A program made the translations under genes and the position numbers. Below are positions 42,759 to 63,284 of a DNA stretch of 64,000 nt, piece by piece. Source of the stretch: Gemmatimonadales bacterium (GTDB lineage Bacteria; Gemmatimonadota; Gemmatimonadetes; Gemmatimonadales; GWC2-71-9); contig JBGAPX010000001.1 of NCBI GenBank assembly GCA_044221045.1, positions 56,608-120,607 of the forward strand, in the 5' to 3' direction. Every line of letters starts with the position of its first letter. The first letter of the stretch is position 1. The notes beneath the pieces were generated by a model. The model was not told the DNA's origin. It saw nothing but the letters and a program-made list of their open reading frames with translations, and ran no database searches.

Positions 42759-43158
42759 CAGGCTGGACGTGATGGTCGCGGGCCGGGCAACCGGTCCCGA
42801 GGAAAGTCCGAGCTCCACCGGGTAGACTGCCAGGTAACGCCTGGGCGCCGCAAGGCGACGGACAGGGCCACAGAAAACAGACCGCCTCCGGCGCGAGCCG
42901 GGGGTAAGGGTGAAACGGTGGGGTAAGAGCCCACCGCCCCGAGCGCAAGCAAGGGGGCACGGCAACCCCCAGTCGGTGCAAGGCCAAATAAGCGGCGAGG
43001 TGTGACCCACACCGCCCATGGGACGACGGGGCTTGCCCCGGGATTCCAAGCCGCGGGTAGGCTGCTCGAGGCGGCCGGCGACGGCCGTCCCAGATAGATG
43101 ACCATCTCCCGGAGGGGCAACCCCGAGGGAAACAGAACTCGGCTTACGGTCTGGCCTG
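42759..43158 (+). ncRNA. rnpB: RNase P RNA, bacterial class A
   Basis: Universal motifs GAGGAAAGTCCGAGCTCCAC, ACAGAAAACAGACCGCC, GGTAAGGGTGAAACGGTGGGGTAAGAGCCCACC, ACAGAACTCGGCTTAC; P1 pairing CAGGCTGGACG / CGGTCTGGCCTG defines the ends (+-5 nt). Confidence 0.93.
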
Positions 43159-43252
43159 GGGCCGGGGATCCGCGGGGGAGCGCGCGTCGTGCGCCGCCCG
43201 GGGCGCCCCGGCCCTCCCGTCCCCCGGGCGCCCGGGGTAGGTTCCTGAGTCA

Positions 43253-48348: not shown

Positions 48349-48438
48349 GGCGGCTCGGCGGCTCGGCGACTCGGCGGCTCGGACTCCGGTCGGCCGGTCG
48401 GGAAGGCCGAGCCGACCAGCCGTCCAGCCGCCGAGCCG
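48349..48438. repeat. inverted octamer arrays (GGCGGCTC x4-5 versus CCGAGCCG-type) forming an imperfect hairpin
   Basis: GGCGGCTC GGCGGCTC GGCGACTC GGCGGCTC GGACTCCG ... GGCCGAGCCGACCAGCCGTCCAGCCGCCGAGCCG; ends 5 nt before dnaN stop. Confidence 0.85.
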
Positions 48439-48443
48439 TCAGA

Positions 48444-49559
48444 TCAGTCCACCAACCGGAGCGGCATGACCAGCGTCAGGTACGCCGCCGGGTCGTTCCA
48501 GCCCACCGGTTCGCAGGTGGCGGCGCGCTCGGGGCCCTTGAAGGTCATGCGCACCTCGTCGGTGGGCATGTACTTCATGATCTCGAGCAGGTAGGCGGCG
48601 TTGGGGCCGATCTCCATGGTCTCGCCGTCGTAGCTCACCGACAGCTCCTCCTGGGCCTCGCCCAGGTCCGGGGTCTGCACCGAGAGCTTGCAGGAGCCGT
48701 TGGCGAGTCCCATGCGGATGCGGTGGGTCTGGTCGCTGGCGACGATGCTCATGCGCTTGAGGGCCGAGGCGAGGGCCGCCTTGTCGGCGGTCATCATCTT
48801 GTCGTTCTCGCGCGGGATCACCTGCTCGTAGTTCGGGTACGGCCCCTCGATGAGCCGGGTGTAGACCTGGGTGGTCGCAGAGCGGAAGCCGAGGTGGTTC
48901 TCGCTCTTGGCGATCTCGAGCTCGTCCTGGTCGCCGAAGAGGCGGCGGATCTGGTCCAGCGCCTTGGGCGGGATGATGAGGTCGGCCTGGCCCTTGCCGA
49001 TGCCGGCGGTGACGGGCACGTCCATCCGGGCCAGCCGGTGGCCGTTGGTGGCCACCATGCGCATCCGCTCGGGCCGGAGCTCCCACAGCACGCCGTTCAG
49101 GATGGGGCGGCTCTCCTCCGTGCTGGCGGCGAACGCGACGTGGGAGACCAGCTTCTGGACGTCGCCGGCCTTGGAGCGCCAGGCGGCGTCGAACTTGACG
49201 GCGGGGAAGGCCGGGAATTCCTCGCGGGGGAGGCCCAGCAGCCGGAACTTGGAGCGGCCGCACTCGATGGTGGCCCGCTGCTCGCCCGAGCTGGTGAGGC
49301 GGATGGCCGCGCTCGGCAGCTCCCGGACGATGTCCGAGAGCTTCTTGGCCGGCAGGGTGATCGCGCCTTCCTGGTCCACGCTGGCCGGCACCGTGGTGCT
49401 GACCGCGATGTCGAGGTCGGTCCCGGAGAGCCGGAGCCCGTCGCCGGTGGCCTCGAGCAGCACGTTCGAGAGCACCGGCAGGGTGGTCTTCGTGGGAATC
49501 GAGGCGGTGACGGCTTGCAGTCCTTCCTGGAACTGCTCCCGCGTGATCGTGAACTTCAT
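48444..49559 (-). CDS. dnaN: DNA polymerase III beta sliding clamp
   Basis: Start MKFTITREQFQEGLQAV inside ORF 48444..49760; 371 aa; ends LVMPLRLVD. Confidence 0.95.
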   Translation of the reverse strand: MKFTITREQFQEGLQAVTASIPTKTTLPVLSNVLLEATGDGLRLSGTDLDIAVSTTVPASVDQEGAITLPAKKLSDIVRELPSAAIRLTSSGEQRATIECGRSKFRLLGLPREEFPAFPAVKFDAAWRSKAGDVQKLVSHVAFAASTEESRPILNGVLWELRPERMRMVATNGHRLARMDVPVTAGIGKGQADLIIPPKALDQIRRLFGDQDELEIAKSENHLGFRSATTQVYTRLIEGPYPNYEQVIPRENDKMMTADKAALASALKRMSIVASDQTHRIRMGLANGSCKLSVQTPDLGEAQEELSVSYDGETMEIGPNAAYLLEIMKYMPTDEVRMTFKGPERAATCEPVGWNDPAAYLTLVMPLRLVD

Positions 49560-49774
49560 CCCGTTCCTCGGCGTGCAAGAAGTACTACTGTTTCCCTGTT
49601 TACTTAAACTAGTAGTAACAGTAGGCGGTGGGGATATGTCGACACCGGCCCCAACTCCGCGCCGCGTCACCGGTTGCCCGGTTCCGGCCCTGTGGACCGG
49701 CTGTGGAGGGCGGGGACGGCATCCGGAGAAGTGCCCAGTTGTCACAGCAACATCTCCCATGTCCGCGTGGACAA
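49560..49774. other. candidate oriC segment (dnaA-dnaN intergenic): AT-rich element plus DnaA-box-like 9-mers
   Basis: AT-rich 49576-49624 (aagaagtactactgtttccctgtttacttaaactagtagtaacagtag, with CTACTGTT/AACAGTAG inverted repeat); TGTGGACCG 49691, TGTGGAG 49702, TTGTCACAG 49739, CGTGGACAA 49766. Confidence 0.5.
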
Positions 49775-51133
49775 CTACTGTGCAATCAGTTCCGTGCGCG
49801 CGCTTTCGATGCGGTCGCGGAAGCTGCGGTCGCGGGCCATCTGGCGCTGGACCTTGTCCACGCTGTGGATCACCGTGGAGTGGTCGCGCCCGCCGAGGCC
49901 TGCCCGATCTCGATCAGCTGCATCTGCAGGATGTCGCGGGCCAGGACATAACGATCCTGGCGCGGCACCAGGAGTCTTGATCGGGCCTTGAGGCGCAACT
50001 GCTCGAGGTCACCCCCAGCGCCAGGCCACGACGTCCTGGATCGGTCGATGGTGGGAAAAGTCGCAGGGTGGCCGCGAGGTCGTCCCAGGCGGATCTTGTC
50101 GGCCAGGGCCTCGCAGGCCAGCTCGATCGGCCTCGCGGTGTGAGCAAGCGAAGAGCAGCAGCTTGATGATGCAGCCCTCGGGCTCGGACGTTGGAGCGGA
50201 CGTGCTCGGCGATGAACCGGAGCACGTCGTCCGGGATGGTCATCTCGAGTGGTCCTGCTCCACCAGCTGCCGCGCAGGATGGCGATCCGGTGCTCGAGGT
50301 CGCTGGCCGATGTCGCAAACCCACCATGCCCCACTCGAAGCGGCTCACCAGCCGGGCCTCGGGCCCGGGATCTCGCGCGGGGGGCCGGTCGGAGGTCAGG
50401 ACGATCTGCTTCCCCGCCTCGTACAGGGCGTTGAAGGTGTGGAAGAACTCCTCCTGGGTACCTCGCCCTCGGAAGTGCACGTCGTCCACCCAGGAAGGGT
50501 CGATGTCTGCCGGTAGCGCTTGCTGACTCCCGGCATGGTGCGGCGCGAGATCCCTCGATCCTCATTGATGAACAACCGGCGCTCACGTACAGCACCCAGT
50601 GCCAGGGCTGCGGCGCAGCGCCAATGGCCGTGCGCGATCATGCTGCATCCGGAACAGGTCTTGCCCAGCCCCGGTGGCGCCGTAGATGAACAGGGGTTGT
50701 AGGTCTTGCCCGGGGCCTCGACCGCGGCGTGGGCGGCGCGGCGGCCAACTGGTTCGACTTGCCGATGGCCAGGTCAGGCTGTAGCGCTCGTTGAGCGGCT
50801 GGTTGCTCAGGTTGGACGCCACCAGGCGTAGCCGCCCGACGGGGGCTCGGCGGTTATCCTCCCCTGGGGCCGCCGCTGCCGGTCCTCCTGGACCCGGAAG
50901 GTGACCGTCACGGGCTTCCCCGCCACGGACTCCGCCAGCCGGGAGAGCAGGGCCCCGTGGTTGGTCTCGTTCCACTTGGCCGCGAACTCGTCGGGCACGG
51001 CGATGACCAGCCGGTCGTCCTCGAGGGCGACGGCTTCGGTGGGCTCGAGCCAGGCGCGCACGACCTTGTCGGGTAGCTTCTGCCCGGCTTCGTCGAGGAT
51101 GCGCTTCCAGATGTCTTTGGCGGACTGCTGCAT
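49775..51133 (-). pseudogene. dnaA: chromosomal replication initiator DnaA, reading frame broken at least 10 times
   Basis: Recognisable DnaA blocks are scattered over all three minus frames: MQQSAKDIWKRILDE.. (ORF 50807..51133), LNERY / PLFIYGATG (50583..50975), GTQEEFFHTFNALYEAGKQIVLTSDRPP, ARLVSRFEWGMV (49914..50489), LEHRIAILR, IELACEALADKI (49870..50595), GGRDHSTVIHSVDKVQRQMARDRSFRDRIESARTELIAQ* (short frame ending TAG 49775). Confidence 0.9.
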
Positions 51134-51186
51134 GCCACTCAGGAGAGATGAGGCGTTAGCAAGGGTGGCCGAACGTACGGGCCGGA

Positions 51187-51195
51187 TGTGGAAAA
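51187..51195. promoter_or_regulatory. DnaA-box-like 9-mer TGTGGAAAA (8/9 to TGTGGATAA)
   Basis: Read directly in the divergent dnaA/rpmH intergenic region. Confidence 0.35.
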
Positions 51196-51259
51196 GTCAA
51201 CCTTGACCCGAACGGGGGGTCCTGGCTAGGTTTGCAGGCTCATTTGAGGGGATTTTCCG

Positions 51260-51421
51260 ATGAATCCGTCATACCGTCCGCGCAACAAGCGCCGGGTCGC
51301 GAAGCATGGCTTCCGGGCCCGCATGTCCACCCGCTGGGGCCGCGAGACCCTGTCCCGCCGCCGCAAGAAGGGGCGGAAGCAGCTCGTGGTGAGCATCGGC
51401 TCCAAAGACGGGAGCCGCTGA
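51260..51421 (+). CDS. rpmH: 50S ribosomal protein L34 (53 aa, C-terminally longer than usual)
   Basis: Not in ORF track (<60 aa); translated by hand: [53 protein letters not shown]; canonical HGFRARMST core. Confidence 0.9.
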
Positions 51422-51759
51422 CGCCAGGCGAACGGCGGCCGCGGTCGAGCCGCCTCGCGGGCCGGGCCGAACGGCTCCGGTGCCTCGAGCAGGGTCGCCG
51501 GCGCCGGCAGCGCTTGCTGGAGTTCATCTGGATGGACAACATGGTGGGCCACCCACGGATGGGACTGATCGTTCCGAAGTTCCAGTCCACGGCGGTGGCC
51601 CGCAATCGTTTACGGCGGCGCCTGCAGGAGCTGTGGCGCCGGGAGGTCCAGCCCAGGCAGGGCGGGCGGGACCTCCTGATCCGGGCCCGGAAGGAAGCCT
51701 ACGGCGTGCCGTTCCAGACGCTCAGGACCGAGCTGCTGACATGGGTGGGCGGGCTGTGA
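51418..51759 (+). CDS. rnpA: ribonuclease P protein component; start codon unresolved
   Basis: Frame of ORF 51232..51759; conserved [41 protein letters not shown]; no ATG/GTG/TTG in frame between rpmH and the conserved N-terminus (only CTG at 51418). Confidence 0.7.
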
Positions 51760-52070
51760 TGCTCGGCGGCTCGGCGGCTCGGCGACTCGGCGGCTCGGCG
51801 GATCGGCACCTCTTTCCCCGGCCCACCACGCCCCTCGGCTGGCTGCAGGCGCCGCTCACCTGGCTCAGCATCCTCCTCATCCGTCTCTACCAGCTCGTCA
51901 TCTCCCCGGGCCTCCCCTCGAGCTGCCGCTTTGCGCCCAGCTGTTCGGCGTACACGCTCGAGGCGGTGCAGCGCCACGGTGCCCTCCGGGGCATCTGGCT
52001 CGGCGCCCGCCGGCTCGATCGCGCCATCAGCCATGCTCGAGGCGGCCAGTTCCCTGACCCCGACGCATAG
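51759..52070 (+). CDS. yidD: membrane protein insertion efficiency factor YidD, with octamer array in codons 2-17
   Basis: ATG overlaps rnpA stop (TGATG); LIRLYQLVISPGLPSSCRFAPSCSAYTLEAVQRHGALRG; N-terminal LGGSAARRLGGSADRH is encoded by the array. Confidence 0.75.
   Translation: MLGGSAARRLGGSADRHLFPRPTTPLGWLQAPLTWLSILLIRLYQLVISPGLPSSCRFAPSCSAYTLEAVQRHGALRGIWLGARRLDRAISHARGGQFPDPDA
51761..51808. repeat. octamer array (GCTCGGCG x3, ACTCGGCG, GCTCGGCG, GATCGGCA) inside the yidD 5' end
   Basis: Six contiguous 8-nt units = 48 nt = 16 codons. Confidence 0.9.
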
Positions 52071-52175
52071 GCACTCATGGACCGCCGTGTGATCTGGGCG
52101 ATCGGCCTGATGATGATCATCGCCATCGCCCCCACCTTCTTCCTCAAGCCGCCGGCCAAGCCGGTGGTGTAGAAA

Positions 52176-52238
52176 CCGCCGATTCGGCGGCTCAGGCGGC
52201 TCGGTGACTCGACGGCTCGGCGGCTCGGCGACTCGGCC
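52176..52238. repeat. octamer array (7 degenerate GCTCGGCG-type units) starting with palindrome CCGCCGATTCGGCGG, inside yidC right after the TAG
   Basis: TTCGGCGG CTCAGGCG GCTCGGTG ACTCGACG GCTCGGCG GCTCGGCG ACTCGGCC. Confidence 0.85.
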
Positions 52239-52517
52239 GAAGTGCTTGGACGCGACAGCGCGTTCGGGCCCGTCGGCACCGTCGAGGCCGACGGCGCCAT
52301 CCGCCCCGCGGCCGACACGGTCGTGGTCTCGAGCCCGCTCTACCGCTACGAGTTGAGCACCCGCGGCGGCGCCCTGGTGCAGGCCACGCTGGCCCGGTAC
52401 AACGCCCTCGACCCTCGGGAAGGGCAAGCCGGTCGAGCTGCTGACCGCCCCGATCCACCAGCTCGCGATCAACGTGGGGAACGACACCCTGTCGCTGGCC
52501 GAGTGGGACTTCACGGT

Positions 52518-52549
52518 GCTCGGCGGCTCGGCGGCTCGGCGGCTCGAGG
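52518..52549. repeat. octamer array (GCTCGGCG x3, GCTCGAGG) inside the yidC periplasmic domain
   Basis: Encodes VLGGSAARRLEA in the yidC frame. Confidence 0.85.
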
Positions 52550-53780
52550 CGAAGGGGCAGCCCCAGGACCTGGTGCTCACCGGCGGCCGCGGCGGCGCGC
52601 AGGTGGAGCTCACCTACACCTTCCGCCCCGACGACTACCTGATCGGCGTGCGCGGCCGGGTCACCGGCCTCGGGCCGGTGGGCGGGCACCTGCTGATCGA
52701 CATGGGCAGCGGCTTCCGCCAGACCGAGGCCGACAGCGCCGCCAACTACTACGAGTTCGGCCTGGTCACCAAGACCGACGAGTCGAAGCTCACCAAGTTC
52801 TCCTCGCTCAAGCCGCTGGAGCGGCGCACCCTGGAGGGGCCGCTGGAGTGGGCGGCGGTCAAGGCCAAGTACTTCGTGGCCGCGGTGCTGGTGGTGGATT
52901 CCGGCGCGGCCCCGCTCTCCGGCGCCACGGCACAGGCGCTGCCGGCCGCCAAGAAGCCGACCCACGCCGCGGTGACCTTCGGGATGCCCATCGCCGCCGC
53001 CGGCGACTTCCAGTACCGCTTCTACCTGGGCCCGATGGAGTACCCGCGGCTCAAGGCGATCGGTCACGGCTTCTACGACATCAATCCCTACGGCTGGCCC
53101 GGCTTCCGCACCATGATCCGCCCGATCGCGGTGGGCGCGCGGTGGCTGCTGGTGTCCATGCACGAGAACCTGGGCCTGGCCTACGGCATCGTGCTGGTGC
53201 TGTTCGGGGTGCTGATCCGGATCGTGCTGTGGCCGCTCAACCAGAAGGGCATGCGCGCCAGCATCCGGATGCAGGGCCTGCAGCCCGAGATGCAGCGGAT
53301 CCAGGACAAGTACAAGGAAGACCCCGCGCGGATGCAGAAGGAAGTGATGGAGCTGTACAAGCGCGAGGGCGTGAACCCCTTCAGCGGCTGCTGGCCGCTG
53401 CTGCTGCCCTGGCCCATCCTGCTGGCGCTGTTCTTCGTGCTGTCGAACTCGATCGAGCTGCGCGGGCAGGCGTTCCTGTGGCTCCCCGACCTGGCGCTCA
53501 AGGACCCGCTCTACGTCATCCCGGTGGTGATGGGGCTGTCGATGTTCGCGGTGAACAAGGTCGGCATGATGGGCATGCCGCCCAACCCGCAGTCGAAGAT
53601 GATGCTGTACTTCCTGCCGGTGATGATGACGGTGATGTTCCTGAACTTCGCGTCGGGACTCAACCTGTACTACGCGGTGCAGAACCTCGTCAGCATCCCG
53701 CAGCAGTGGTACCTGGCCAAGGAGCGGCTCAAGGCCAAGCCGCCGGAAGTCGGCACGAAGAAGGGCTGACGGCGCGCCGA

Positions 53781-53863
53781 CGGGAAACGGAAAACGGGAA
53801 GCGGGAAGGCACGGAGCTCACCTCGCCTTCCCGCTTCCCTTTTCCCGTTTCCCGGTAGTTTTT
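53781..53863 (+). terminator. intrinsic terminator built from inverted heptamer arrays: 30-nt arms (28/30 paired) + T5
   Basis: CGGGAAACGGAAAACGGGAAGCGGGAAGGC (53781-53810), 14-nt loop, GCCTTCCCGCTTCCCTTTTCCCGTTTCCCG (53825-53854), then GTAGTTTTT; 11 nt after yidC stop. Confidence 0.7.
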
Positions 53864-53878
53864 CCTTCTCCTACGACC

Positions 53879-55188
53879 ATGCTCTCGGACCCCATCGTCG
53901 CCCTCGCCACCCCGCCCGGCCGCTCCGCGCTCGCGGTGATCCGGCTCTCGGGCGCGGGGGCGTTCGGGATCGCGGCGCGGGTCATCCCCGGCTTCCGCGC
54001 CGACCCGCCGCGCACCGCGCATTACGCCGCCTTCCGCGACGCCGCCGGCCAGCTGATCGACCGGGGGATCTACCTGGTGTTCGCCGGCCCGCGCTCCGAG
54101 ACCGGCGAGGACGTGGTGGAGTTCCAGTGCCACGGCGGGCTCGCGGTGCCGGCGCGGCTGGTGGCGGCGATCGAGGCCGCCGGCGCGCGCCCCGCCCACC
54201 CGGGGGAGTTCACCCGCCGCGCGGTGATGCACGGGAAGCTCGACCTGCTCCAGGCCGAGGCGCTGGGCGACCTCATCGATGCCGAGGCGCCGGCGCAGGC
54301 CCGCGCCGCGCTGGTGCAGCTGGAGGGCGGGCTCTCCCGCCGGATCGCGGCGCTCCCCGCGCCGGGCTGGTGGAGCTGCTGGCGCTGCTCGCGTACGACG
54401 TGGACTTCCCCGAGGAAGACGACGGCCCCGTTGCCCGCGACCGGATCGAGGCCGCCCGCGCCACCGTGCTCGCCGGGGTGGAGCAGCTGCTCGGCACCGC
54501 GCCGCTCGCCGACCGGGTGCGCCGCGGCGCGCTGGTGGTGCTGGCCGGCCCGCCCAACGCCGGCAAGTCGTCGCTGTTCAACGCCCTGCTCGGGAGCGAA
54601 CGGGCGCTGGTCACCGAGATCCCCGGCACCACCCGCGACGCCATCGAGGCCCACGTGGAGTTCCACGGCTGGCCCATCCGCCTGGTGGATACCGCCGGCC
54701 TCGGCGAGGCCACCGACCGGCTCGACGCGCTGGGCCAGGCGATGGGCCGGCGATTCGTGGAGGGGGCGGATCTGGTGGTGGAGCTGGGCGGCCTGGCGGT
54801 TCGGCGGCTCGGCGGTTCGGAGGCTGCACCGCTGCTGGTCCGCGCCAAGGCCGACCTGGGTGGCGAGGGGGAGGGGCTCCCGGTGTCGGCGGTGACGGGG
54901 CAGGGGCTCGCGGAGCTCAAGCGCGCCATCGTCGCGCGGCTGTTCCAGTCCGGCGCCGGCTTCGCCGACCTGGAGCCGGCGCTCACCCGCGAGCGGCACC
55001 GGGTGGCGCTCAGTACCGCGCGCGACGCCCTCGCGGCCACCGCCACCCAACTCGGCCCCCGTGGCGAGGCGGTGCTCGCCGCACATCACGTGCAGGAGGC
55101 GGTGCGCGCACTCGATGGCCTGGTGGGAGTGGTGGATGTGGAGGAGGTGCTGGACCGGGTGTTTGCGAGTTTTTGCGTGGGGAAGTAG
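53879..55188 (+). pseudogene. mnmE: tRNA modification GTPase MnmE, single frameshift in the C4 run at 54355-54358 (probable sequence error)
   Basis: N-terminal half in ORF 53879..54895 (MLSDPIVALATPPGRSALAVIRLSG, GKLDLLQAEALGDLI), C-terminal half in ORF 54127..55188 (GPPNAGKSSLFNALLG, DTAGL, ..FCVGK*); total 1310 nt = 437 codons minus 1 nt. Confidence 0.9.
54787..54826. repeat. octamer array (GGCGGCCT GGCGGTTC GGCGGCTC GGCGGTTC GGAGGCTG) inside the mnmE G-domain
   Basis: Encodes ELGGLAVRRLGGSEA between the ADLVV and LLVRAKADL strands. Confidence 0.85.
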
Positions 55189-55198
55189 GCCCGACGGA

Positions 55199-55323
55199 CG
55201 GGAAGCGGGAAACGGGAAGCGGGAAGCGGAACCGCCGATCCCCGCGGCTTTCGCCGGCGCCCGGGAACCCGAGCCGTCTTGCTGAGTAGCGCCCTCTTCC
55301 CGCTTCCCGCTTCCCTTTTCCCG
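55199..55323. repeat. inverted heptamer arrays separated by a 61-nt spacer
   Basis: CGGGAAG CGGGAAA CGGGAAG CGGGAAG CGGAACC (55199-55233) ... CTCTTCC CGCTTCC CGCTTCC CTTTTCC CG (55294-55323); 10 nt after mnmE stop, 9 nt before the next ATG. Confidence 0.9.
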
Positions 55324-56124: not shown

Positions 56125-56130
56125 ATTGCC

Positions 56131-56218
56131 GGGAAGCGGGAAGCGGGAAGCGGGAAGCGGGAAGCGGGAAGCGGGAAGCGGGAGGCGGCGGACTCCGCTT
56201 CCCGTTTCCCGTTTCCCG
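56131..56218. repeat. (GGGAAGC)x7 + GGGAGGC, short loop, then (GCTTCCC GTTTCCC GTTTCCC)
   Basis: Seven perfect units 56131-56179; partial complementary arm 56194-56218; 6 nt after the MOSC stop. Confidence 0.95.
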
Positions 56219-56253
56219 TCTAGTCTTCACCCAATCTCACCCCAGCGACATCC

Positions 56254-57051
56254 ATGACCCCCACCCTCCTCGGCATCCCGTGGGATGCGAGCTCGTCGTT
56301 CCAGCGCGGGCCGGCGCAGGCGCCGGCTGCCGTCCGCGCCGCCCTCCGCTCCGATTCCAGCAACGGCTGGAACGAGGAGCTGGTGGACGCCCGCGCGCTG
56401 CTCCAGGACGCCGGCGACCTGGCGCTCCCCGCCGACGGCCCGCTGCCGCTCGAGGCGATCACCGCCGGCGCCCGCGCGCTGCTCGACGCCGGCGCGACGC
56501 CGGTCTTCCTGGGCGGCGACCATTCGGTGACCTGGCCGCTGGTCCGCGCGGTACGGCCCCGCCACGAGCGGCTCACGATCTTCCACCTCGACGCCCACCC
56601 CGACCTCTACGACGAACTCGACGGCCGGCGCGACAGTCACGCCTGCCCCTTCGCGCGGATCCTCGAGGAGGGCGGCGCCAATCACCTGGTGCAGGCGGGG
56701 ATCCGCACCCTCAACGCGCACCAGCGCGACCAGGCCCGCCGCTTCGGGGTGGAGATGGTGCAGATGCGCCAGGGACTCGAGGCGATGGTCACCGCCGCCC
56801 GCCGCCTGGCCGGGCCGGTCTACCTGTCCGTCGACCTCGACGCGCTCGACCCGGCCTTCGTCCCCGGGATCAGTCACCCCGAACCGGGCGGGCTCAGCAC
56901 CCGCGAGCTGCTCACGATCCTGCAGGCGATCCCCAAGGGCCGGATCGTGGCGGCCGACGTGGTGGAACTCAACCCCGCCAACGACCTGCGCGACCTCACG
57001 GCCAGGGTGGCGGCGAAGGTGGTTGGGGAGATCGTGGGGAGGTTGGGGTAG
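56254..57051 (+). CDS. speB: agmatinase-like ureohydrolase
   Basis: 265 aa; GGDHSVTWP, HLDAHPDLY, SVDLDALDPAFVPGISHPEPGGL. Confidence 0.85.
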   Translation: MTPTLLGIPWDASSSFQRGPAQAPAAVRAALRSDSSNGWNEELVDARALLQDAGDLALPADGPLPLEAITAGARALLDAGATPVFLGGDHSVTWPLVRAVRPRHERLTIFHLDAHPDLYDELDGRRDSHACPFARILEEGGANHLVQAGIRTLNAHQRDQARRFGVEMVQMRQGLEAMVTAARRLAGPVYLSVDLDALDPAFVPGISHPEPGGLSTRELLTILQAIPKGRIVAADVVELNPANDLRDLTARVAAKVVGEIVGRLG

Positions 57052-57058
57052 GAACAGC

Positions 57059-57323
57059 GGGAAGCGGGAAGCGGGAAGCGGGAAGCGGGAAGCGGGAAAC
57101 GGGAAACGGGAAACGGGAAACGGGAAACGGGAAGGGGGAAAGGGGGAAAGGGAAGCGGGAAGGGGAACCCGCGAGAGCCAGGGGAGTACATCAAACCGCC
57201 CAACCGCCACTCCCTCGCGCCCGGGTCGCCGCTACGCGGCTCCCGAAGGGCGCTCGGTCGCCGCCCTACCGCCCTACCGCCCTACCGCCTTACCGCCTTA
57301 CCGCCCTACCGCCTACCGCCCCT
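57059..57323. repeat. largest composite element: (GGGAAGC)5 (GGGAAAC)5 + ~5 degenerate heptamers, conserved core, (CCGCCCTA/CCGCCTTA)x8
   Basis: Heptamers 57059-57170; core ..CCGCCCAACCGCCACTCCCTCGCGCCCGGGTCGCCGCTACGCGGCTCCCGAAGGGCGCTCGGTCGCCG 57195-57260; octamers 57261-57323; fills the gap between convergent speB and CDGSH genes. Confidence 0.95.
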
Positions 57324-57510
57324 CGTTATGCGACCCATCGCAGAACGGCTTGGACTTGGAGCGGCCGCAGCCGCAGAGCTTGACGGTGCCGGGCTTCTTG
57401 GGAGTGGGCTGGGGGATTTCGCGGCCGTCGCCATCGACGAGGACGACCGGCGTTTCGATGAGGATGCTGCCGGAGGGCTTGATGGTGATGCGGACCGGCG
57501 TGTCGCTCAT
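57313..57510 (-). CDS. CDGSH iron-sulfur domain protein (65 aa)
   Basis: MSDTPVRITIKPSGSILIE..CGCGRSKSKPFCDGSH; last codons and TAG stop lie within the octamer array; ATGA overlap with upstream gene. Confidence 0.85.
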   Translation of the reverse strand: MSDTPVRITIKPSGSILIETPVVLVDGDGREIPQPTPKKPGTVKLCGCGRSKSKPFCDGSHNEGR

Positions 57511-58451
57511 GCCGTCTGGACGCCCCGGGCCTGGTCTTCGGCGGCCTGGAACTCCTGGGCGCTGGCGCGCAGCGCCTGCGCGATGCCCCGCTCCTGCACC
57601 AGGGCCTCGGACATCCGGTGGCCGAGGTAGTAGCCGGAGCGCTCGGGGAGAACGCGGCCGGCGACGAGGCGGGCGGAGGGGCTCATGCCGCCGCTCAGGT
57701 AGCGGAGCCGGAGCCCGATGCCGCGGCCCTCGAGCTCGGGCTCGACGACGCGGCGGAGCAGGGACTCGAGCTCGCGCAGGCGGCGGTACTGGCGGCGGGG
57801 GTAGCCGAAGTAATTGGCCGGGTCGAGGCCGGGCGCCACCGCCTGGGCGGCGTGGACGGCCAGGCCCTCGTTGAGCAGCAGCTCGCGCAGGGTGGCGCGG
57901 CTGCCGGTGACCCAGTAGTCGTAGTAGCCGCCCTGGTCGGCCACGATGCGCTTGAGCTCGCTCTGGCTCTGGGGCGAGGTGTACCGGACGCAGTGCGCCA
58001 GCTCGTGCGCCACCCACAGCGGGATGAGCTCCGGCGGCAGGCCCATGCCGTAGGTCTCGGGGTTGGCGCGCCCGGTGAAGTGCTCCAGGCAGATGAACGC
58101 CACGCCCCGCCCGCCCACCACCAGCTCGCCCGCGTTGGCCGCGCCCATCCCGACCATCAGGTACACGTCCGTGGGCCGGTCGACGCCCAGCAGGTCCTCG
58201 GACTGCGCGATCGCGTCCTCGACGATGCCCGCGACGTCCGAGCTCTCGAGCAGTTCGTAGAGGTCGGAGCGGTCGGCGTTGAGCGCGTGGGTCATCACCG
58301 CGCGCGCCTGCTGGCTCTCGAGGTCCAGCACGTAGTTGTGCCAGTACGCGGAGAGGACGGCGCGATGTGCGTTCAGGTACTGCTCGAACGCGGCTTCGCG
58401 GTCTGTGGCTTTCAGGACGGAGAGGAATTCGGGGACGAGATTGATCAGCAC
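57507..58451 (-). CDS. predicted zinc-dependent protease (DUF2268-like, HExxH)
   Basis: GTG start (VLINLVPEFLSVL) inside ORF 57507..59978; WVAHELAHCVRY; upstream part of the long ORF is Arg/Gly/Pro-rich artefact. Confidence 0.65.
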   Translation of the reverse strand: MLINLVPEFLSVLKATDREAAFEQYLNAHRAVLSAYWHNYVLDLESQQARAVMTHALNADRSDLYELLESSDVAGIVEDAIAQSEDLLGVDRPTDVYLMVGMGAANAGELVVGGRGVAFICLEHFTGRANPETYGMGLPPELIPLWVAHELAHCVRYTSPQSQSELKRIVADQGGYYDYWVTGSRATLRELLLNEGLAVHAAQAVAPGLDPANYFGYPRRQYRRLRELESLLRRVVEPELEGRGIGLRLRYLSGGMSPSARLVAGRVLPERSGYYLGHRMSEALVQERGIAQALRASAQEFQAAEDQARGVQTA

Positions 58452-58693: not shown

Positions 58694-61600
58694 TCAGTTC
58701 CCCCCCAGCTGCGCGACCCGGATCCTCGCCCGCTCCACCCGCGCCCGGTAGATCGGGTCGGCATCGCTCCAGTTCTTGAGCACCTGGCGGTAGCGGGTGA
58801 CGGCGCTGTCGCGCTCGCCGGCGGCGTCCCAGGCCAGGGCGCCGAGCTCGAGGAGCTCGGTGGTGGTGGCGTAGGTCTGGGAGGCGTCGAGTCCGCCGCG
58901 GCGGGCGGCGTCGGCCCAGTAGGCGGCCTCGCGGGGGCGGTTGAGGCGCAGCAGGACCTTGGCCAGCTCGATGTTGGTGCGGGTGTAGCCGCTGGTCGGG
59001 CTCCAGATGGCCTGACGGAATTCGGCCGCGGCCTGCTCCAGCTGGCCCCGCGCCGCGTAGAGCAGGCCGCGCACGTGATGGTGGGCCCGGCCGTCGCGGC
59101 CGTAGCTGTTCCGCTGGCCCCAGACCTCGATGCTGTCGGCGATGCGTGGCAGGGGCGCGGTGTCGCCGGCGGCGGCGAGGGCGGTGCTCCGGAGCAGCTG
59201 GGTCCACACCAGGTTGCGGGCCACCTGCGAGCGGGTGGTGTCCCGGGGGCTGCGCGAGACGGAATCGAACGTCGCCGCCGCGCGGCGGAAGTCGCCCAGC
59301 TCGTACCAGGCCTGCGCCTCGAAGAGGGCGCTGTAGGGCGCGGCGCCTCGGGGGAAGGGATCCTCGAGGCCCCGGAGCCGGTGGGCCCACTCCAGGCCCT
59401 CGCGCGGCTTCCCCTGCATGCGATGGCTGATGCTCAGCCACTTGTAGCCCTCGCCGGGGAGCTTGCCGTGCGCCAGCTGGGTGTAGTAGCTGTCCGCCGC
59501 GGCGAAGTCGCCCATGCGGAGCCACACCTGCACCCGGAAGCCGTCGCGCACCAGGCCGGGGTCGCGGGCGATGACGACCTGGTCGGCGGTGAGCGCCTCG
59601 CGGTACCGGCCCGCGAGCATGAGCACCCAGCTGACCTGCCCCGCCGGCCCCGCCGCCTGCGGCTGGGCCCGCTGCCACTCCTCCGCGGTGCGGAGCGCGG
59701 CCGGCAGCGAGTCCATGTAGGCGTAGGTGCTGACGAGCATGAGGTAGGCGATGCAGGCATGGCAGCGCACCGGCGGGCCATCCTTGCGCTCGCTGGCCCG
59801 GAGCGAGAGCGAGTCCATCCGGATGACCTTCCGCAGCGGCTCGACCGCGCCCAGGAAGTCCCCGCTCGAGTTCCGCGCCGCCGCGAGCCAGGTGTAGCCC
59901 TCCGGCTCGGTGGGGTAGCGCACGGTGAGGCTCTCCGCCACCGCGATCCGGTTGGGCGCGTCCACCGCCGCGCTCCACCCCGCCAGGATGGTGAGCCGCT
60001 CCCGTTCCGAGGCCCGCGCCGAGAGCCGCACCGCCCGCTCCAGGCCGCGGATGAGGTTGACGTCGTTGAAGCTCCCCTGCGTCGTCGCCAGCCAGTAGGC
60101 GGCCATCGCGAAGGTGGAGTCCTCCTGCAAGGCCTGCTCCATCAGGCGCGCGCCCGCCTCGCCGTCGCCGCGGAAGAGGGCGCGCAGCCCTTCCTCATAG
60201 AACCGGTACGCCACCAGGGAGCGGGTGGTGACCTCGGCGATGCTGCCATTGGCGGCGCTGTCGATCCCCTCGGTGATGCTGCGCCGCGCCTCCTCCACCA
60301 GCCCGAAGAGGTCGCCCGCCTCCGCCGAGTAGCTCTCGGTCACGCCGCCGGTGGCGAGGTTGGTGCGGGTGAGGTCGAGCCGCAGCCGGCCGTCGGGCCG
60401 GCGGTAGAGGGCGCCGTCGATCAGCTCGGTGGCACCGGCGGCGCGCGCGGCGCGCACGGCGCTCGCCGCGGAATCGCCGGGGCCGCCCGATTGCGCCATG
60501 AGCTCGTACATCCGCGCGGTGCTGATGACCTGCAGCGCGCGGCTGCGCGCCAGGTCGGTGGCGAGCATGTCGCCGAGCGGGCGCGCCAGGCCCTCGCCGC
60601 TCCGGGTGTAGTCCTTGATCATCCCCACCGCCACCACCGGCGCCGCGGCGCCCGCGCCGAGCTCGTCCCGGAACACCCGCACCCGCATCACGCCCGCCAC
60701 CAGCAGGCCGAGGACGAGGCCGATGGCGATGCCGAGGCGGGTGGAGGTTCGGCGGAGAAACGGCTTGCGGGGCGGCAGGGCCGCCAGCGGCTCGGCGGCT
60801 CGGCGACTCGGCGGCTCGACCTGCGGACGGGGGCGGGCGTACTCGTCGGTGTAGCCGGAGATGAGCTTGCGGCCCGAGGGCTCCGGCACCGGCGCCGGCC
60901 GGGTGACGGCGGGGGTGCCGGGGATGGTGGAGATGGGGACGGAGGCGAGCGGCTCGGCGGCTCGGCGACTCGGCGGCTCGGCGGCTTGGCGGCTCGGCGG
61001 CTCGACCGTTTCCCGCACTCTCTCGCCCCCGGGTCGCGCTGACGCGCTCCCGAAGGGGGCTCGGTCGCCGCTTCCCGCTTCCCGCAGTTGATCTGCCAGC
61101 CGCTTCACCTCCGGGTCCGGCTCCAGCTCCAGTTCCTGCCGCAGCAGCATCTCGTACACCCGGTAGTGCTGCAGGGCGGCGGCGCGGTCGCCGACGGCGG
61201 CGAGGGCCTGCATCAGGCCGAGTGCGCTCCGGGCGTTGAGCGGGTCGGCGTTGGCGAGGAGGCGCCAGTAGCCGAGGGCGGTGCGGGGATCGCCGGCGGA
61301 GGAGGTGTCGCGGGCCAGCCGCTCCACGGCGGCGATGTAGTCGTGCGCCAGCGCGGCGCGTTCGCTCTCGGCCCAGCGCTCGAACTCGGGGGCCTCGTCG
61401 AGGTAGATGCCGTCGAGGAAGGGGCCCTTGTAGAGCGCGACCGCGTCGGCGAGGCGCTGCTCCTTGAGCGCCTGGCGGAAGCGGGCCAGGTCGCTGTCGC
61501 AGAGGTCGGGGTTGAGCCGGAGGTCGGTGGTGCCGAGCACCAGGTCCTCGGCGCCCAGGTCGCGGCGCAGGGCGTAGACCGTCTGGGCGAGGTTCTTCCG

Positions 61601-61792
61601 GGCCCGCTCCAGGTCGGACTCGGGCCACAGGAGGCTGAGCAGCTTCTCGCGCGAGAGGCCGCGCTCGCCGGCGGCGGCGAGGAGGGCCAGCAGCGCCAGG
61701 CGGCGGCGCTGGGCGCCGGCGCCCGCGGCCGGGGCGCCGCCCCGCTGGACGCCCAGGCCGCCGAAGGTGACGAGGAGGAGCGGTGGGCTCAT
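58694..61792 (-). CDS. BTAD/SARP-like winged-helix transcriptional regulator with TM segment and TolB-N-like/TPR sensor region (1032 aa)
   Basis: N-terminus RRLALLALLAAAGERGLSREKLLSLLWPE..; BTAD block ALYKGPFLDGIYLDEAPEFERWAESERAAL..ALQHYRVYEMLLRQELELEPD; TM LGIAIGLVLGLLVAGV; TPR-like C-terminus. Confidence 0.85.
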   Translation of the reverse strand: MSPPLLLVTFGGLGVQRGGAPAAGAGAQRRRLALLALLAAAGERGLSREKLLSLLWPESDLERARKNLAQTVYALRRDLGAEDLVLGTTDLRLNPDLCDSDLARFRQALKEQRLADAVALYKGPFLDGIYLDEAPEFERWAESERAALAHDYIAAVERLARDTSSAGDPRTALGYWRLLANADPLNARSALGLMQALAAVGDRAAALQHYRVYEMLLRQELELEPDPEVKRLADQLREAGSGDRAPFGSASARPGGERVRETVEPPSRQAAEPPSRRAAEPLASVPISTIPGTPAVTRPAPVPEPSGRKLISGYTDEYARPRPQVEPPSRRAAEPLAALPPRKPFLRRTSTRLGIAIGLVLGLLVAGVMRVRVFRDELGAGAAAPVVAVGMIKDYTRSGEGLARPLGDMLATDLARSRALQVISTARMYELMAQSGGPGDSAASAVRAARAAGATELIDGALYRRPDGRLRLDLTRTNLATGGVTESYSAEAGDLFGLVEEARRSITEGIDSAANGSIAEVTTRSLVAYRFYEEGLRALFRGDGEAGARLMEQALQEDSTFAMAAYWLATTQGSFNDVNLIRGLERAVRLSARASERERLTILAGWSAAVDAPNRIAVAESLTVRYPTEPEGYTWLAAARNSSGDFLGAVEPLRKVIRMDSLSLRASERKDGPPVRCHACIAYLMLVSTYAYMDSLPAALRTAEEWQRAQPQAAGPAGQVSWVLMLAGRYREALTADQVVIARDPGLVRDGFRVQVWLRMGDFAAADSYYTQLAHGKLPGEGYKWLSISHRMQGKPREGLEWAHRLRGLEDPFPRGAAPYSALFEAQAWYELGDFRRAAATFDSVSRSPRDTTRSQVARNLVWTQLLRSTALAAAGDTAPLPRIADSIEVWGQRNSYGRDGRAHHHVRGLLYAARGQLEQAAAEFRQAIWSPTSGYTRTNIELAKVLLRLNRPREAAYWADAARRGGLDASQTYATTTELLELGALAWDAAGERDSAVTRYRQVLKNWSDADPIYRARVERARIRVAQLGGN
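60787..60818. repeat. octamer array (GCGGCTCG x2, GCGACTCG, GCGGCTCG) inside the BTAD regulator linker
   Basis: Encodes VEPPSRRAAEPLAAL on the minus strand. Confidence 0.85.
60949..61084. repeat. composite element inside the BTAD regulator CDS: (GCGGCTCG)x7, conserved core, (CTTCCCG)x2
   Basis: Core ACCGTTTCCCGCACTCTCTCGCCCCCGGGTCGCGCTGACGCGCTCCCGAAGGGGGCTCGGTCGCCG 61005-61070; translated as EAGSGDRAPFGSASARPGGERVRETVEPPSRQAAEPPSRRAAEPLA. Confidence 0.9.
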
Positions 61793-62452: not shown

Positions 62453-62507
62453 CAGGTGATCGGCAGGTGATCGCAGGGTGAAGGGGAATTCATGGGCAGG
62501 TGAACGC
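62453..62507. promoter_or_regulatory. helical-turn-phased direct repeats CAGGTGATCGG / CAGGTGATCG / CAGGGTGAAGG ... CAGGTGAACGC
   Basis: Starts at 62453, 62464, 62474 and 62497; directly upstream of the HD/BTAD operon start (62445). Confidence 0.4.
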
Positions 62508-62543
62508 CGGGCCTATTGTAGCCCGCGTAGCAGATGGGAGCAA

Positions 62544-62663
62544 GCGGCGGCTCGGCGGCTCGGCGGCTCGGCGGTTCGGGGGTTCGGGGGTTCGGGGGTG
62601 CGGCGGTGCGGTCTCGAACCGCCCAACCGCCTAACCGCCCAACCGCCGAACCGCCCAACCGCC
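62544..62663. repeat. inverted octamer arrays: (TCGGCGGC/TCGGGGGT/GCGGCGGT)x9 facing (GAACCGCC/CAACCGCC/TAACCGCC)x6
   Basis: GGCGGTTC-type units are the reverse complement of GAACCGCC units, giving a long imperfect hairpin; 36 nt upstream of a lipoprotein gene with AAAGGAGA RBS. Confidence 0.9.
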
Positions 62664-62699
62664 CGACACCAAACTCAAACAAGTAAAGGAGACCAGGCA

Positions 62700-63284
62700 A
62701 TGCGGGGCACCAGGTGGATGGCGACGATGGCGACGATGGCGGCGGTGGCGGTTCTCACGGCCTGCGGTGGCGATGGCAACGGCAGCGTGGGCCCGGGGAA
62801 CGGCGGGGCGGGGTTCTCGGCGGACGTGCAGGGGGACATCGAGACCTCCATCAAGGGCGACGCGCTGTACGGCAACGCCAGCGACCCCGAGGCGGGGACG
62901 ATCTTCGCCATCGAGATGTCGGAGGATGACTCGACCGGCGGCGGGCTGATCCAGCTGATCCGGATCGGCGCCGGGATGCCGGCGGTGGGCAACTACCAGC
63001 TGACCGACGCGGTGAACGGCACCCCACAGGAGGGTGACTGGGTGGCGGCGGCCTATGACAGCGACCACGGGCAGCTGACCGCGATCTTCGCCGCCACCAG
63101 CGGCTCGGTCAAGGTGACGCGCAACAGCAACGGCGCCTACGAGGGCACGTTCGACTTCATCGCCATCGGCGGGGCGCTGTCCGACCCGACCACCGAGATG
63201 ACGATCGCGGTGAACGGCCGCTTCAAGGCGACGCAGTCGCCCGGCTCGGCGGTGCGGTCGCTGCCGCGGGTGCGGAGCCGGTAA
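62700..63284 (+). CDS. hypothetical lipoprotein (194 aa)
   Basis: Start MRGTRWMATMATMAAVAVLTACGG (lipobox) inside ORF 62478..63284; strong RBS AAAGGAGA 8 nt upstream. Confidence 0.7.
   Translation: MRGTRWMATMATMAAVAVLTACGGDGNGSVGPGNGGAGFSADVQGDIETSIKGDALYGNASDPEAGTIFAIEMSEDDSTGGGLIQLIRIGAGMPAVGNYQLTDAVNGTPQEGDWVAAAYDSDHGQLTAIFAATSGSVKVTRNSNGAYEGTFDFIAIGGALSDPTTEMTIAVNGRFKATQSPGSAVRSLPRVRSR

Follow-up and report, generated by a model that had tools for sequence, protein, structure and literature searches.

The locus and its repeats

Within the window (the whole stretch of 64,000 nucleotides that was analysed, with a GC content of 72% and slippage-prone arrays throughout), an arginase/agmatinase-family gene and a zf-CDGSH gene converge on a short intergenic region in which a heptamer array, a hairpin-forming core (copy A) and an octamer array follow one another. 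The G-rich strand of the heptamer array begins 5 nt past the arginase-family stop codon. Three further copies of the core lie elsewhere in the window, one (copy B) inside a gene for a BTAD/SARP-TM-TPR regulator and two (C1 and C2) in tandem. The features are listed below; the stems and bulge of copy A are placed by fold and pair covariation.

27338-27409, minus strand: core copy C1, outer stem GGGCC/GGCCC; intact, with a degenerate 3' flank; 50.5 bits
27410-27472, minus strand: core copy C2, a degenerate tandem direct duplicate of C1; 25.6 bits, E=0.001
56254-57051, plus strand: arginase/agmatinase-family gene, left neighbour of copy A; orthologue (PF00491) in the relatives L089 and L090
57056-57167, plus strand: heptamer array (GGGAAGC)5(GGGAAAC)5 with degenerate units; TRF period 7, 16.1 copies
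57196-57208, plus strand: left bracketing octamer unit(s) CCGCCCAACCGCC, of the CCGCC+NNN class that brackets copies in all genomes
57209-57261, plus strand: core copy A, running from ACTCCCTCG through the hairpin to CTCGGTCGC; 68.6 bits to model R1
57217-57222 and 57248-57253, plus strand: outer stem of copy A
57223-57225 (GGG) and 57242-57244 (CCC), plus strand: middle stem of copy A
57228-57232 and 57236-57240, plus strand: inner stem of copy A, with loop TAC
57245-57247, plus strand: bulge GAA of copy A
57261-57321, plus strand: octamer array (CCGCCCTA/CCGCCTTA), 7.8 units, overlapping the zf-CDGSH stop codon (57313-57315, minus strand)
57313-57510, minus strand: zf-CDGSH gene (65 aa), right neighbour of copy A; orthologue (PF09360) in L089 and L090
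58694-61792, minus strand: BTAD/SARP-TM-TPR regulator gene (1032 aa; PF03704, PF00486; 631 homologues), hosting copy B and two octamer arrays in linkers
60787-60818, plus strand: octamer array (GCGGCTCG)4, in the second linker of the BTAD protein
60949-61004, plus strand: octamer array (GCGGCTCG)7 in the same ORF, whose translation gives 8-residue repeats of the EPPSRRAA type
61017-61068, plus strand: core copy B, outer stem GCCCCC/GGGGGC; 79.1 bits
61068-61085, plus strand: heptamer units (CCGCTTC), 2.6 copies, flanking core B opposite the octamer array

The motif CCCGGGTCGC-N5-16-CTCCC occurs four times in the window against 0.02 expected, and a covariance-model scan with its filters off returned copies A, B, C1 and C2 only. 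An earlier note on this DNA had listed the arrays, core A, a second core and inverted tandem copies, all of which lie where it placed them: its near-identical core in a coding region is copy B, inside the 1032-aa ORF, and its inverted tandem copies near 27.4 kb, next to octamers, are two copies spaced 63 nt apart that adjoin (GGCGGTTA)2.9. The pattern GCGNCCCGGGNCGC given in that note matches no core, even at one mismatch.

Structure of the core

The element is a single imperfect hairpin in three segments, with copies of 53-62 nt. An outer stem of 6 bp is followed by a middle stem (GGG/CCC) and an inner stem of 4-5 bp, and the hairpin is interrupted by an internal loop fixed as TC/T and by a 3-nt bulge rich in purines. 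It is flanked by nearly invariant single-stranded sequences, ACTCCCTCG on the 5' side (often longer, as GCCCTGAAGGACTCCCTCG) and CTCGGTCGC on the 3' side. Across several genera-level MAGs the flanks and bulges are more strongly conserved than the stems.

Covariation supports this structure. Among 79 distinct copies, 95.9% of cells are paired, compared with 85.5% in shuffled alignments and no more than 65% once the partner is shifted along, and the covariation score is 0.218 compared with 0.058 for the shuffled set. The outer and inner stems vary by compensatory substitutions, with at least six Watson-Crick variants of the outer stem; pair 23-58 is CG in 53 copies, GC in 26 and unpaired in none, while pairs 24-57 (GC 53, CG 19), 25-56 (CG 65, GC 6, UA 1) and 35-43 (GC 56, CG 21, AU 1) behave similarly. 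In DNA palindromes, compensatory changes can also arise without selection, via template switching between the arms. The fold proposed earlier, a palindrome centred on CCCGGG that contains a CCC-GAA-GGG mini-hairpin, is contradicted by these pairings: GGGCGC pairs with the upstream GCGCCC and CCC with the upstream GGG, so that GAA is a bulge. The folding signal of single copies is weak on the plus reading (z from -0.2 to -1.8), and for the reverse strand of copy A the fold is more stable than in shuffled sequence (z=-3.3).

Range and dispersal of the family

The full element was found in about 45 of the 88 genome-scan loci, all of these approximately 45 in Gemmatimonadales/Gemmatimonadota MAGs. 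In a metagenome scan with constraints on the 3' half of the element alone, 77 of 77 matches carry the 5' flank and the complementary 5' stem strand, both of which had been left free. With contexts counted from covariance-model coordinates, more than 117 are non-redundant, and the carriers found were Gemmatimonadota in every case; by extrapolation there are probably many copies per genome. A scan of viral contigs gave no core copies, and hence no evidence for a phage vehicle. A literature search for tandem, palindromic, REP or RAYT repeats in Gemmatimonadetes, subscription journals being outside its scope, yielded no description, and the core family of these uncultured bacteria is apparently undescribed so far.

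This dispersal bears on the simplest explanation, namely that local duplication or slippage without dispersal, or chance similarity, produced three GC-rich loci. The high GC content of the window, its many slippage-prone arrays and the local tandem duplication C1/C2 are all in keeping with such an origin. However, copies dispersed over many MAGs and metagenomes, their presence in unrelated genes and the excess of the motif within the window refute it, and we assign it practically no probability.

Close doublets are direct tandems with a spacing of 63-69 nt (C1/C2, L008, L063, L025, L121, L153 and L157). In two loci, L049 and L004, oppositely oriented copies are present too, separated by 170 nt to 1.2 kb. 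The ORFs between these opposite copies resemble, by eye, a Uma2-type endonuclease, a DUF2075-like helicase and an NYN-like protein, and none looks like a transposase. A tblastn search with E. coli RayT, a Y1/HUH enzyme of the kind whose gene usually has REPs on its flanks, gave no match in the window and all sampled loci (approximately 1.1 Mb).

Copies inside genes

Between 11 and 25% of the copies are intragenic and in frame; counted strictly, 10 of 94 contexts fall within an ORF. Copy B is in frame and antisense within the BTAD/SARP-TPR gene, where it is translated as ..SGDRAPFGSASARPGGERVRE.., and the neighbouring array at 60949-61004 has a different unit in L090 (GGTCGGAC) and L089 (AACCGCC/GAGCCGCC). 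Elsewhere, Pfam domains are recognised on both sides of the in-frame copy in a TPP enzyme (L048), a class-III aminotransferase (L016), DnaE (L010) and a PurL-like protein (L083), and an M1 peptidase (L006) also carries a copy within its ORF. In MutS2 (L056) the copy is followed by the MutS_V domain, with coding signal on either side, and L022 and L056, which are different genomes, both carry a copy at one and the same mutS2 position. In-frame copies are tolerated even within essential genes.

Filled and empty sites in relatives

Presence or absence of the core differs between close relatives. The site of copy A is filled in the window and in L089 and empty at the orthologous site in L090, where a heptamer array of the window's type stands without a core. 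The site of copy B is filled in the window, L090/P0002 and L102, and empty in L089/P0001 (97% amino acid identity) and L091/P0003; core B splits a run of heptamers that is unbroken in L091. At both sites the relatives differ by replaced segments, not by clean insertions. Truncated or degenerate cores were also found in L090 (12635-12683) and in L018, where the window has none.

The sole clean filled/empty case is a gabT-like gene, in which the copy is present in L016 and absent from L166/L167 at 92% nucleotide identity. What separates them is a discrete block of 60 nt lying within an octamer array, (GGCGGACG)n, and no duplication of 3 nt or longer accompanies it. Since the closest homologues inspected (P0122, P0123, P0124, P0127, P0131 and P0134) are without the block, the insertion is the derived state. 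At other copies the direct repeats are the array unit itself, identical at every copy in one genome.

The earlier note had argued for a mobile, templated or RNA-encoding element in preference to independent slippage. For the core, its mobile reading is supported by the further copies, the covariation and the presence/absence polymorphism, while the fixed composite, the RNA-encoding function and the fold that it proposed are not supported.

The flanking 7- and 8-nt arrays

Every core copy is bracketed on each side by at least one array unit in direct orientation. All octamer units consist of GGCGG and three variable nucleotides. By-eye counts place about 14 of 18 copies of the CCCCC/GGGGG core variant next to CTTCCCG heptamers, and 15 of 15 copies of the GGCCC/GGGCC variant next to octamers only. 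This bracketing, together with the correlation between core sub-variant and unit type, is the real part of the composite idea. The fixed succession of heptamer array, core and octamer array that had been proposed is not upheld: the flanking arrays differ from copy to copy, occur without a core at about 30 places in the window, and are already present at orthologous empty sites (site A and gabT). The octamer array to the right of copy A has an orthologous array in both L089 and L090.

Arrays cover 11.6% of intergenic compared with 0.5% of coding bases, and their length differs by one unit either way between genomes that are 98.4% identical. Where inverted arrays neighbour each other, the pair folds into a very stable hairpin (z from -4 to -5.5). 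The heptamer array beside copy A obeys the G-strand positional rule given for GGGNATC repeats, and nine heptamer arrays checked by eye against the ORF calls all fit it, so placed as would be expected of G-quadruplex-type repeats; the quadruplex itself is putative.

Several of these observations would also suit a single active repeat-writing system that makes both hairpin and arrays, in which an enzyme would nick or prime at the hairpin or at GGCGG/GGGAA motifs and then add or homogenise genome-specific 7-8-nt units by templated or snap-back synthesis. Each copy is bracketed by the typical unit of its own genome, as at the shared mutS2 site, where the unit is GGACCGGC in L056 and GGCTCGGC in L022; the octamers share their GGCGG; orthologous inverted array pairs have switched unit in step on the two arms, with GGCGGTT(G/C/A)/AACCGCC in the window and GGCGGTA(T/G)/TACCGCC in L090; and arrays stand in coding loops, where none are expected. 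However, all of this also follows from ordinary slippage combined with ectopic gene conversion between dispersed repeats, single-unit steps between nearly identical genomes are typical of slippage, no candidate enzyme is linked to the loci examined, and arrays far outnumber cores. We therefore consider such a system improbable.

Orientation, transcription and RNA

Copies lie antisense to transcription more often than sense (33 versus 13, p=0.0045), a bias that is not predicted by a purely selfish, orientation-blind element. Stop codons were rejected as the cause of the antisense bias within ORFs, the mean number of open frames being 2.36 for sense and 2.38 for antisense. Both orientations occur in each context class, and convergent gene pairs outnumber divergent ones around the copies (17 versus 7). 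With respect to replication, the window and its syntenic relatives offer five independent sites, and at four of them ACTCCC reads on the inferred lagging-strand template, with oriC placed between dnaA and rpmH; the sites are too few for a conclusion on strand bias.

At the RNA level, Rfam 15 gave no match to the core at the gathering threshold, and hits with E up to 10 were chance hits outside it. No canonical terminator or promoter was found at the core, which has no U-tract, its 3' flank being CTCGGTCGC. Strand asymmetry of wobble pairs, which was sought to choose an RNA strand, was not found either, with 6 G·T and 8 A·C mismatches, both equally rare. A small RNA gene or cis-regulatory RNA motif yielding a discrete structured transcript would be consistent with the covarying structure, the conserved unpaired nucleotides and the folding of the reverse strand of copy A. 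However, besides the Rfam, promoter and terminator results and the rarity of wobble pairs, the copies are found in either orientation, some of them inside ORFs and some as tandem pairs, and their position relative to start codons is inconsistent, which makes such an RNA very unlikely. The suggestion that the element encodes an RNA is accordingly not supported, in view also of the in-frame intragenic copies, and the best reading of the mismatch, Rfam and terminator/promoter results is that the core acts at the level of DNA, not RNA.

A further rival is a structural element that serves the host. As RNA, it might protect 3' ends or attenuate transcription from one gene to the next; as DNA, it might provide a site for a nucleoid or topology protein, as is known from E. 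coli REP/BIME. In either case host selection would keep the copies. The fact that the flanks hardly vary across genera, and are conserved more strongly than the stems, and the mutS2 position shared by two genomes could reflect a host-level function instead of mobility; the excess of convergent gene pairs, the moderate orientation bias and the very stable inverted array pairs nearby point the same way. Set against this are the missing U-tract or canonical terminator, copies within essential ORFs that are necessarily transcribed and translated through, the lack of G·U enrichment, the occurrence of both orientations in each context class, and intergenic sites that are filled or empty in 97-98% identical relatives with their neighbour genes unchanged. 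On this evidence a host-serving element seems unlikely.

Origin and implications of the repeats

The core is probably a lineage-specific, non-autonomous palindromic repeat acting at the DNA level, of a REP/RPE-like kind, that has been inserted into arrays or copied between them. The 7- and 8-nt arrays would then form a separate, far more abundant and slippage-prone microsatellite layer, which may provide landing pads or homology for the core. By one route, a trans-acting HUH/Y1 transposase of the RAYT or IS200/IS605 kind would recognise the folded single strand and the conserved flanks. By another, copies would be transferred between arrays with the array units as homology, a transfer that would account for the link between core sub-variant and type of flanking unit.

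The Gemmatimonadota, which abound in wastewater and soil, have received little study. In their Gemmatimonadales MAGs, assembly errors, mis-called ORFs and variation between strains concentrate at these elements and arrays, and the covariance model can be used for masking or genotyping copies. The sub-variants that track the array unit, together with arrays that pre-exist at empty sites, offer a tractable system for target choice and spread of small non-autonomous repeats. If the repeat-writing account were true after all, an enzyme-driven or templated microsatellite generator, working beside a recognised hairpin or motif (GGCGG+NNN, GGGAA+NN), would be remodelling intergenic regions and protein linkers, those of essential enzymes included, in place of passive slippage and a selfish repeat.

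Comparison with known repeat families

Intrinsic terminators differ from the core in having a T/U tract after the hairpin. MITEs differ in that the core is one continuous hairpin without separate terminal inverted repeats, its flanks beyond the stem pairing over 2 bp only, and in that the gabT filled/empty pair has no target-site duplication of 3 nt or more. PATEs derived from IS200/IS605 carry a subterminal hairpin at each end and insert, duplicating nothing, on the 3' side of a tetra- or pentanucleotide that is fixed. The core has one hairpin only and likewise no duplication at gabT; to its left there is always an array unit of CCGCC- or CCCG-type, as a fixed target would allow, though this does not prove one.

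The flanking heptamers, and not the core, recall the GGGNATC G4 repeats of Xanthomonas and Nostoc, for which the excerpts of PMC4692102 drawn on here describe a G-strand located after the stop codon (sense) or upstream of the ORF (antisense). Both have a 7-nt unit with a G3 tract (here (GGGAAGC)n), a strongly intergenic location and a variable unit number, whereas the Gemmatimonadales unit is distinct in sequence and its arrays are often inverted pairs that form long hairpins. As abundant lineage-specific intergenic 7-nt tandem repeats they also resemble the TAACTGA heptamers of Beggiatoaceae and cyanobacteria and the cyanobacterial STRR, which according to the abstract of PMC4679880 are AT-rich and lie just upstream of start codons; that abstract does not mention a hairpin core.

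REP/REPIN sequences are mobilised by RAYTs (PMC3337134, PMC3116915), carry a GTAG head and form inverted doublets, and the RAYT papers found do not mention Gemmatimonadetes. Like REPs, the core is a short imperfect hairpin with conserved flanking nucleotides and many dispersed copies, mostly extragenic and enriched at gene 3' ends, with sub-families within one genome and no target duplication in its sole clean case. However, the GTAG (GT[AG]G) head is absent from the core consensus on either strand, the flanks being ACTCCCTCG and CTCGGTCGC, close doublets are direct tandems in place of the inverted ones of REPINs, and the intragenic share of 11-25% sets it apart.

With respect to functional class, the element resembles the RPEs of Rickettsia. 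In the excerpts of PMC10969869 used here (citing Ogata et al. 2000, 2002), these are palindromic, dispersed repeats of approximately 100-150 bp in AT-rich Rickettsia, found between genes and in frame in unrelated housekeeping genes, lineage-restricted and with no transposase encoded within. The Gemmatimonadales element differs in its length of 53-62 nt, its occurrence in a lineage of 72% GC and its nesting in microsatellite arrays, no relationship in sequence to RPEs is to be expected, and the excerpts of PMC4692102, PMC4679880 and PMC10969869 do not mention such nesting of a hairpin element. Like an RPE, the element is lineage-restricted, has no internal transposase, and occurs both between genes and in frame in unrelated genes whose ORF is preserved, adding a peptide in loops or linkers and leaving the protein intact. 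It constitutes a second, independent case of Rickettsia-type tolerance of in-frame palindromes in housekeeping proteins, in a free-living and GC-rich lineage.

Core copies in the window

The heptamer array, palindromic core and octamer array that an earlier note had listed from sequence alone were all found in the window (GC content 72%) by direct reading of 56800-57600, 60800-61300 and 27200-27700 together with Tandem Repeats Finder.

Core copies, adjoining arrays and neighbouring genes
56254-57051, + strand: arginase-family gene, left of copy A (synteny with Pfam-labelled orthologues)
57056-57167: heptamer array, 16 units (Tandem Repeats Finder and reading)
57196-57208: CCGCCCAACCGCC (reading)
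57209-57261: core copy A (reading and covariance model)
57261-57321: octamer array, 7.8 units (Tandem Repeats Finder and reading)
57313-57510, - strand: zf-CDGSH gene, right of copy A (synteny with Pfam-labelled orthologues)
58694-61792, - strand: BTAD/SARP-TM-TPR regulator gene, 1032 aa, host of copy B
61017-61068: core copy B, near-identical to A, between (GCGGCTCG)7 and (CCGCTTC)2.6
27338-27472: two tandem core copies, on the strand opposite to A

Copy A is intergenic between two convergent genes. Copy B lies in the linker following the BTAD domain of its host, where it is translated as SGDRAPFGSASARPGGERVRE; 631 homologues of this regulator are of about equal length. Four instances of the motif CCCGGGTCGC-N5-16-CTCCC are present in the window against 0.02 expected, and when the entire window was scanned with the covariance model, filters off, only these four cores came up (79.1, 68.6, 50.5 and 25.6 bits), none of which matches the pattern GCGNCCCGGGNCGC given in the earlier note.

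Structure of the core

The core folds as one imperfect hairpin with an outer stem (GCGCCC/GGGCGC in copy A), a middle stem (GGG/CCC) and an inner stem (GCCGC/GCGGC), leaving unpaired a TC/T internal loop, a 3-nt purine-rich bulge and a variable loop. Across 79 distinct copies, 95.9% of cells pair compared with 85.5% after shuffling, and sliding the 3' partner strand gives at most 65% pairing. Covariation in these copies scores 0.218, compared with 0.058 after shuffling, with a smaller set concordant. Four pairs are G-C in some copies and C-G in others, with few unpaired cells or none, and the outer stem has at least six Watson-Crick variants (GCCCCC/GGGGGC, GGGCCC/GGGCCC, GCGCCC/GGGCGC, GCGGCC/GGCCGC, GCGTCC/GGACGC and GCCGCC/GGCGGC). 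The previously suggested CCC-GAA-GGG mini-hairpin is refuted, as the post-bulge G covaries with a C far upstream. Single-copy folding gives z of -0.2 to -1.8 in the + reading; for copy A read on the reverse strand, z is -3.3. Such energies are unremarkable in a GC-rich background, and hence the evidence for structure is comparative. Among non-canonical cells, G·T (6) and A·C (8) are equally rare, which is more consistent with a DNA palindrome, able to fold on either strand, than with an RNA.

Range of the family

Protein homologues place the window in Gemmatimonadales; its closest relatives are L089, an ENA contig (98.4% nt identity), and L090 (GCA_016717475.1; 89% aa identity in the BTAD protein). 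A genome scan with a pattern specifying 21 bases, one genome per species, returned 88 loci, about 45 of which are Gemmatimonadales/Gemmatimonadota MAGs with the whole element; these also carry the 3' flank CTCGGTCGC, though the pattern did not require it. The remaining loci are chance matches in coding sequence of other GC-rich phyla. When only the 3' half of the core was constrained, a metagenome scan gave 77 matches on 72 contigs, and every one of the 77 carries the 5' flank (..CCCTGAAGGA)CTCCCTCG, which the search left free, together with a 5' stem strand that complements the 3' strand. No copy was found in the viral contigs scanned and no matching family in Rfam. Full-text literature searches, with subscription journals outside their scope, returned no description of Gemmatimonadetes repeats of this kind, and the REPIN/RAYT papers found there do not mention the phylum.

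Arrays and their link to the core

Arrays with 7- or 8-nt units are found at about 30 sites across the window and are not special to this locus; they cover 11.6% of intergenic bases versus 0.5% of coding bases. They are independent of the core, since they far outnumber cores, pre-exist at empty sites and vary by single units between 98.4%-identical genomes. All cores nevertheless have, on either side and in direct orientation, one or more array units of the type that characterises their genome: CCGCCGAG for SMAG_U3977, GGCGGAC(N) for OBJ2, GGCGGCTC for the MFD MAGs, and CTTCCCG or AA(C/T)CGCCC for STL-GEM4 and the window. Core sub-variants follow the unit, CCCCC/GGGGG mostly with heptamers and GGCCC/GGGCC with octamers only.

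Arrays frequently form inverted pairs (window 48349-48440, 53780-53868, 55199-55323, 56130-56219 and 62545-62664), in which a G-rich arm, a short loop and a complementary C-rich arm make very long hairpins (DNA folding z of -5.5 and -4.1 for the two pairs folded). Their place is conserved between relatives while the unit is altered on both arms, for example GGCGGTT(G/C/A)/AACCGCC in the window and GGCGGTA(T/G)/TACCGCC in L090. The (GGGAAGC)n heptamers obey the positional rules that have been reported for GGGNATC quadruplex-type repeats (PMC4692102).

A promoter-like TTGCTC-N17-TACAAT (minus strand, ~62500-62545), conserved in the window, L089 and L090 and unreported by a consensus promoter scan, directly adjoins a hypervariable inverted array pair; at 62717-62750 a 9-nt repeat (GATGGCGAC) is present 3.8 times at the start of a coding region, one unit shorter in L089. 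Synteny with L090 identifies ~48400-55200 as a replication-origin neighbourhood (dnaN and dnaA on the - strand; rpmH-rnpA-yidD-yidC-trmE on the + strand), with octamer arrays at 51761-51807 and 52184-52237 just downstream of a short ORF (51514-51759) assigned by the same synteny to the rpmH-rnpA region, and at 52518-52546 and 54795-54820 inside or beside the yidC and trmE regions. A second repeat family in relatives, GGGAT(C/T)CCTCGGTCGCTGCGCTCCCTCGG(G/A)ATGACAG, absent from the window, is frequently situated 20-45 nt upstream of cores of the heptamer type and has CCCTCG, GGTCGC and GCTCCC in common with the core (L004 1498-1514, 5753-5769 and 6698-6714; L060 5586-5602; L079 3876-3892; L096, L101, L112, L142 and L151).

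Elsewhere the window holds a class A bacterial RNase P RNA (42759-43162, + strand, 261.9 bits), two adjacent paralogous genes of ~520 and ~500 aa (10735-13805; 300-nt blocks 83-86% identical, offset 1517 nt), and, within 14017-20726, a very long ORF (1686 aa by the ORF caller) that extends into DNA of low GC (0.615 at 18-20 kb) and is followed by 1.65 kb without a confident ORF.

Presence and absence between relatives

Site A is filled in the window and L089 and empty in L090, where matching octamer and heptamer arrays surround a different 30-nt spacer. Site B is filled in the window, L090 and L102 and empty in L089, whose host protein is 97% identical overall to that of the window, and in L091, which has an unbroken heptamer run where the core interrupts in filled genomes; filled and empty versions of this site differ by replacement of a segment, not by a clean insertion. 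A truncated core in L090 (12635-12683) and a degenerate one in STL-GEM4 (L018) each occupy a position at which the window has arrays alone. In L090 (~12700-12960) three copies of a ~75-nt tandem repeat fill the spacer that separates the BTAD gene from the DUF2268 gene; in the window this spacer holds only heptamer and octamer arrays.

The cleanest case is a gabT-like gene, in which L016 carries a 60-nt block, GCCCTAACGGACTCCC...CTCGGTCG, and the L166/L167 orthologue, 92% identical, has an unbroken (GGCGGACG)3 array in its place; this pair shows no target duplication measuring 3 nt or more. The block is missing in the closest homologues inspected (P0122, P0123, P0124, P0127, P0131 and P0134), indicating that the insertion is derived and the array older than the core. 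Across Gemmatimonadota this aminotransferase has a hypervariable CYRC...CC loop (P0135-P0139, P0186, P0189, P0200, P0205), which in several genomes holds array-encoded peptide repeats, such as DVATSPGR x3 in P0135.

Copies inside genes and orientation

Under a strict test, which asked for coding signal in a single frame to either side of the core, 10 of 94 evaluable contexts place it within an ORF, and about 25% do so under a looser gene call. Pfam shows the host ORF continuing on both sides in a TPP enzyme (L048), a class-III aminotransferase (L016), DnaE (L010) and a PurL-like protein (L083); in MutS2 (L056) the MutS_V domain follows the core, which has coding signal to either side. Further hosts are an M1 peptidase (L006) and the BTAD regulator of the window. 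Translated octamer arrays yield 8-residue repeats such as EPPSRRAA. Two different MAGs (L022 5066-5137 and L056 7166-7237) share a core at the equivalent mutS2 position, ~20 codons upstream of the Walker A motif, and in both cases the flanking octamer unit is that of the genome concerned. Either the insertion is old and was retained while its flanks were homogenised, or the site is an insertion hotspot.

In 117 non-redundant contexts, 17 gene pairs around cores are convergent versus 7 divergent. Where direction is definable, the ACTCCC...GGTCGC reading is antisense to local transcription in 33 cases and sense in 13 (p=0.0045); the ratio is 16:3 within ORFs and 17:10 where co-directional genes lie on both sides. 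Stop codons fail to account for the bias, which may stem from peptide tolerability, from strand-specific insertion or from RNA-level selection.

Nature of the element and comparison with known repeats

The core is best supported as a non-autonomous DNA-level palindromic repeat family, which would land in, or be copied between, microsatellite arrays. Two mobilising mechanisms are candidates. Spread by a hairpin-recognising HUH/Y1 enzyme is favoured by the conserved single-stranded flanks and the lack of target duplication, and array-homology gene conversion by the linkage of core variant to unit type. No RAYT was found in ~1.1 Mb covering the window and collected loci rather than whole genomes. 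REP/REPIN elements have a GTAG head and inverted doublets, and MITEs have terminal inverted repeats and target duplications; the core has none of these, and the family is therefore assigned to neither. On the best-supported reading it functions like REP elements and the Rickettsia palindromic elements (RPE), the latter as characterised in a MITE review (PMC10969869).
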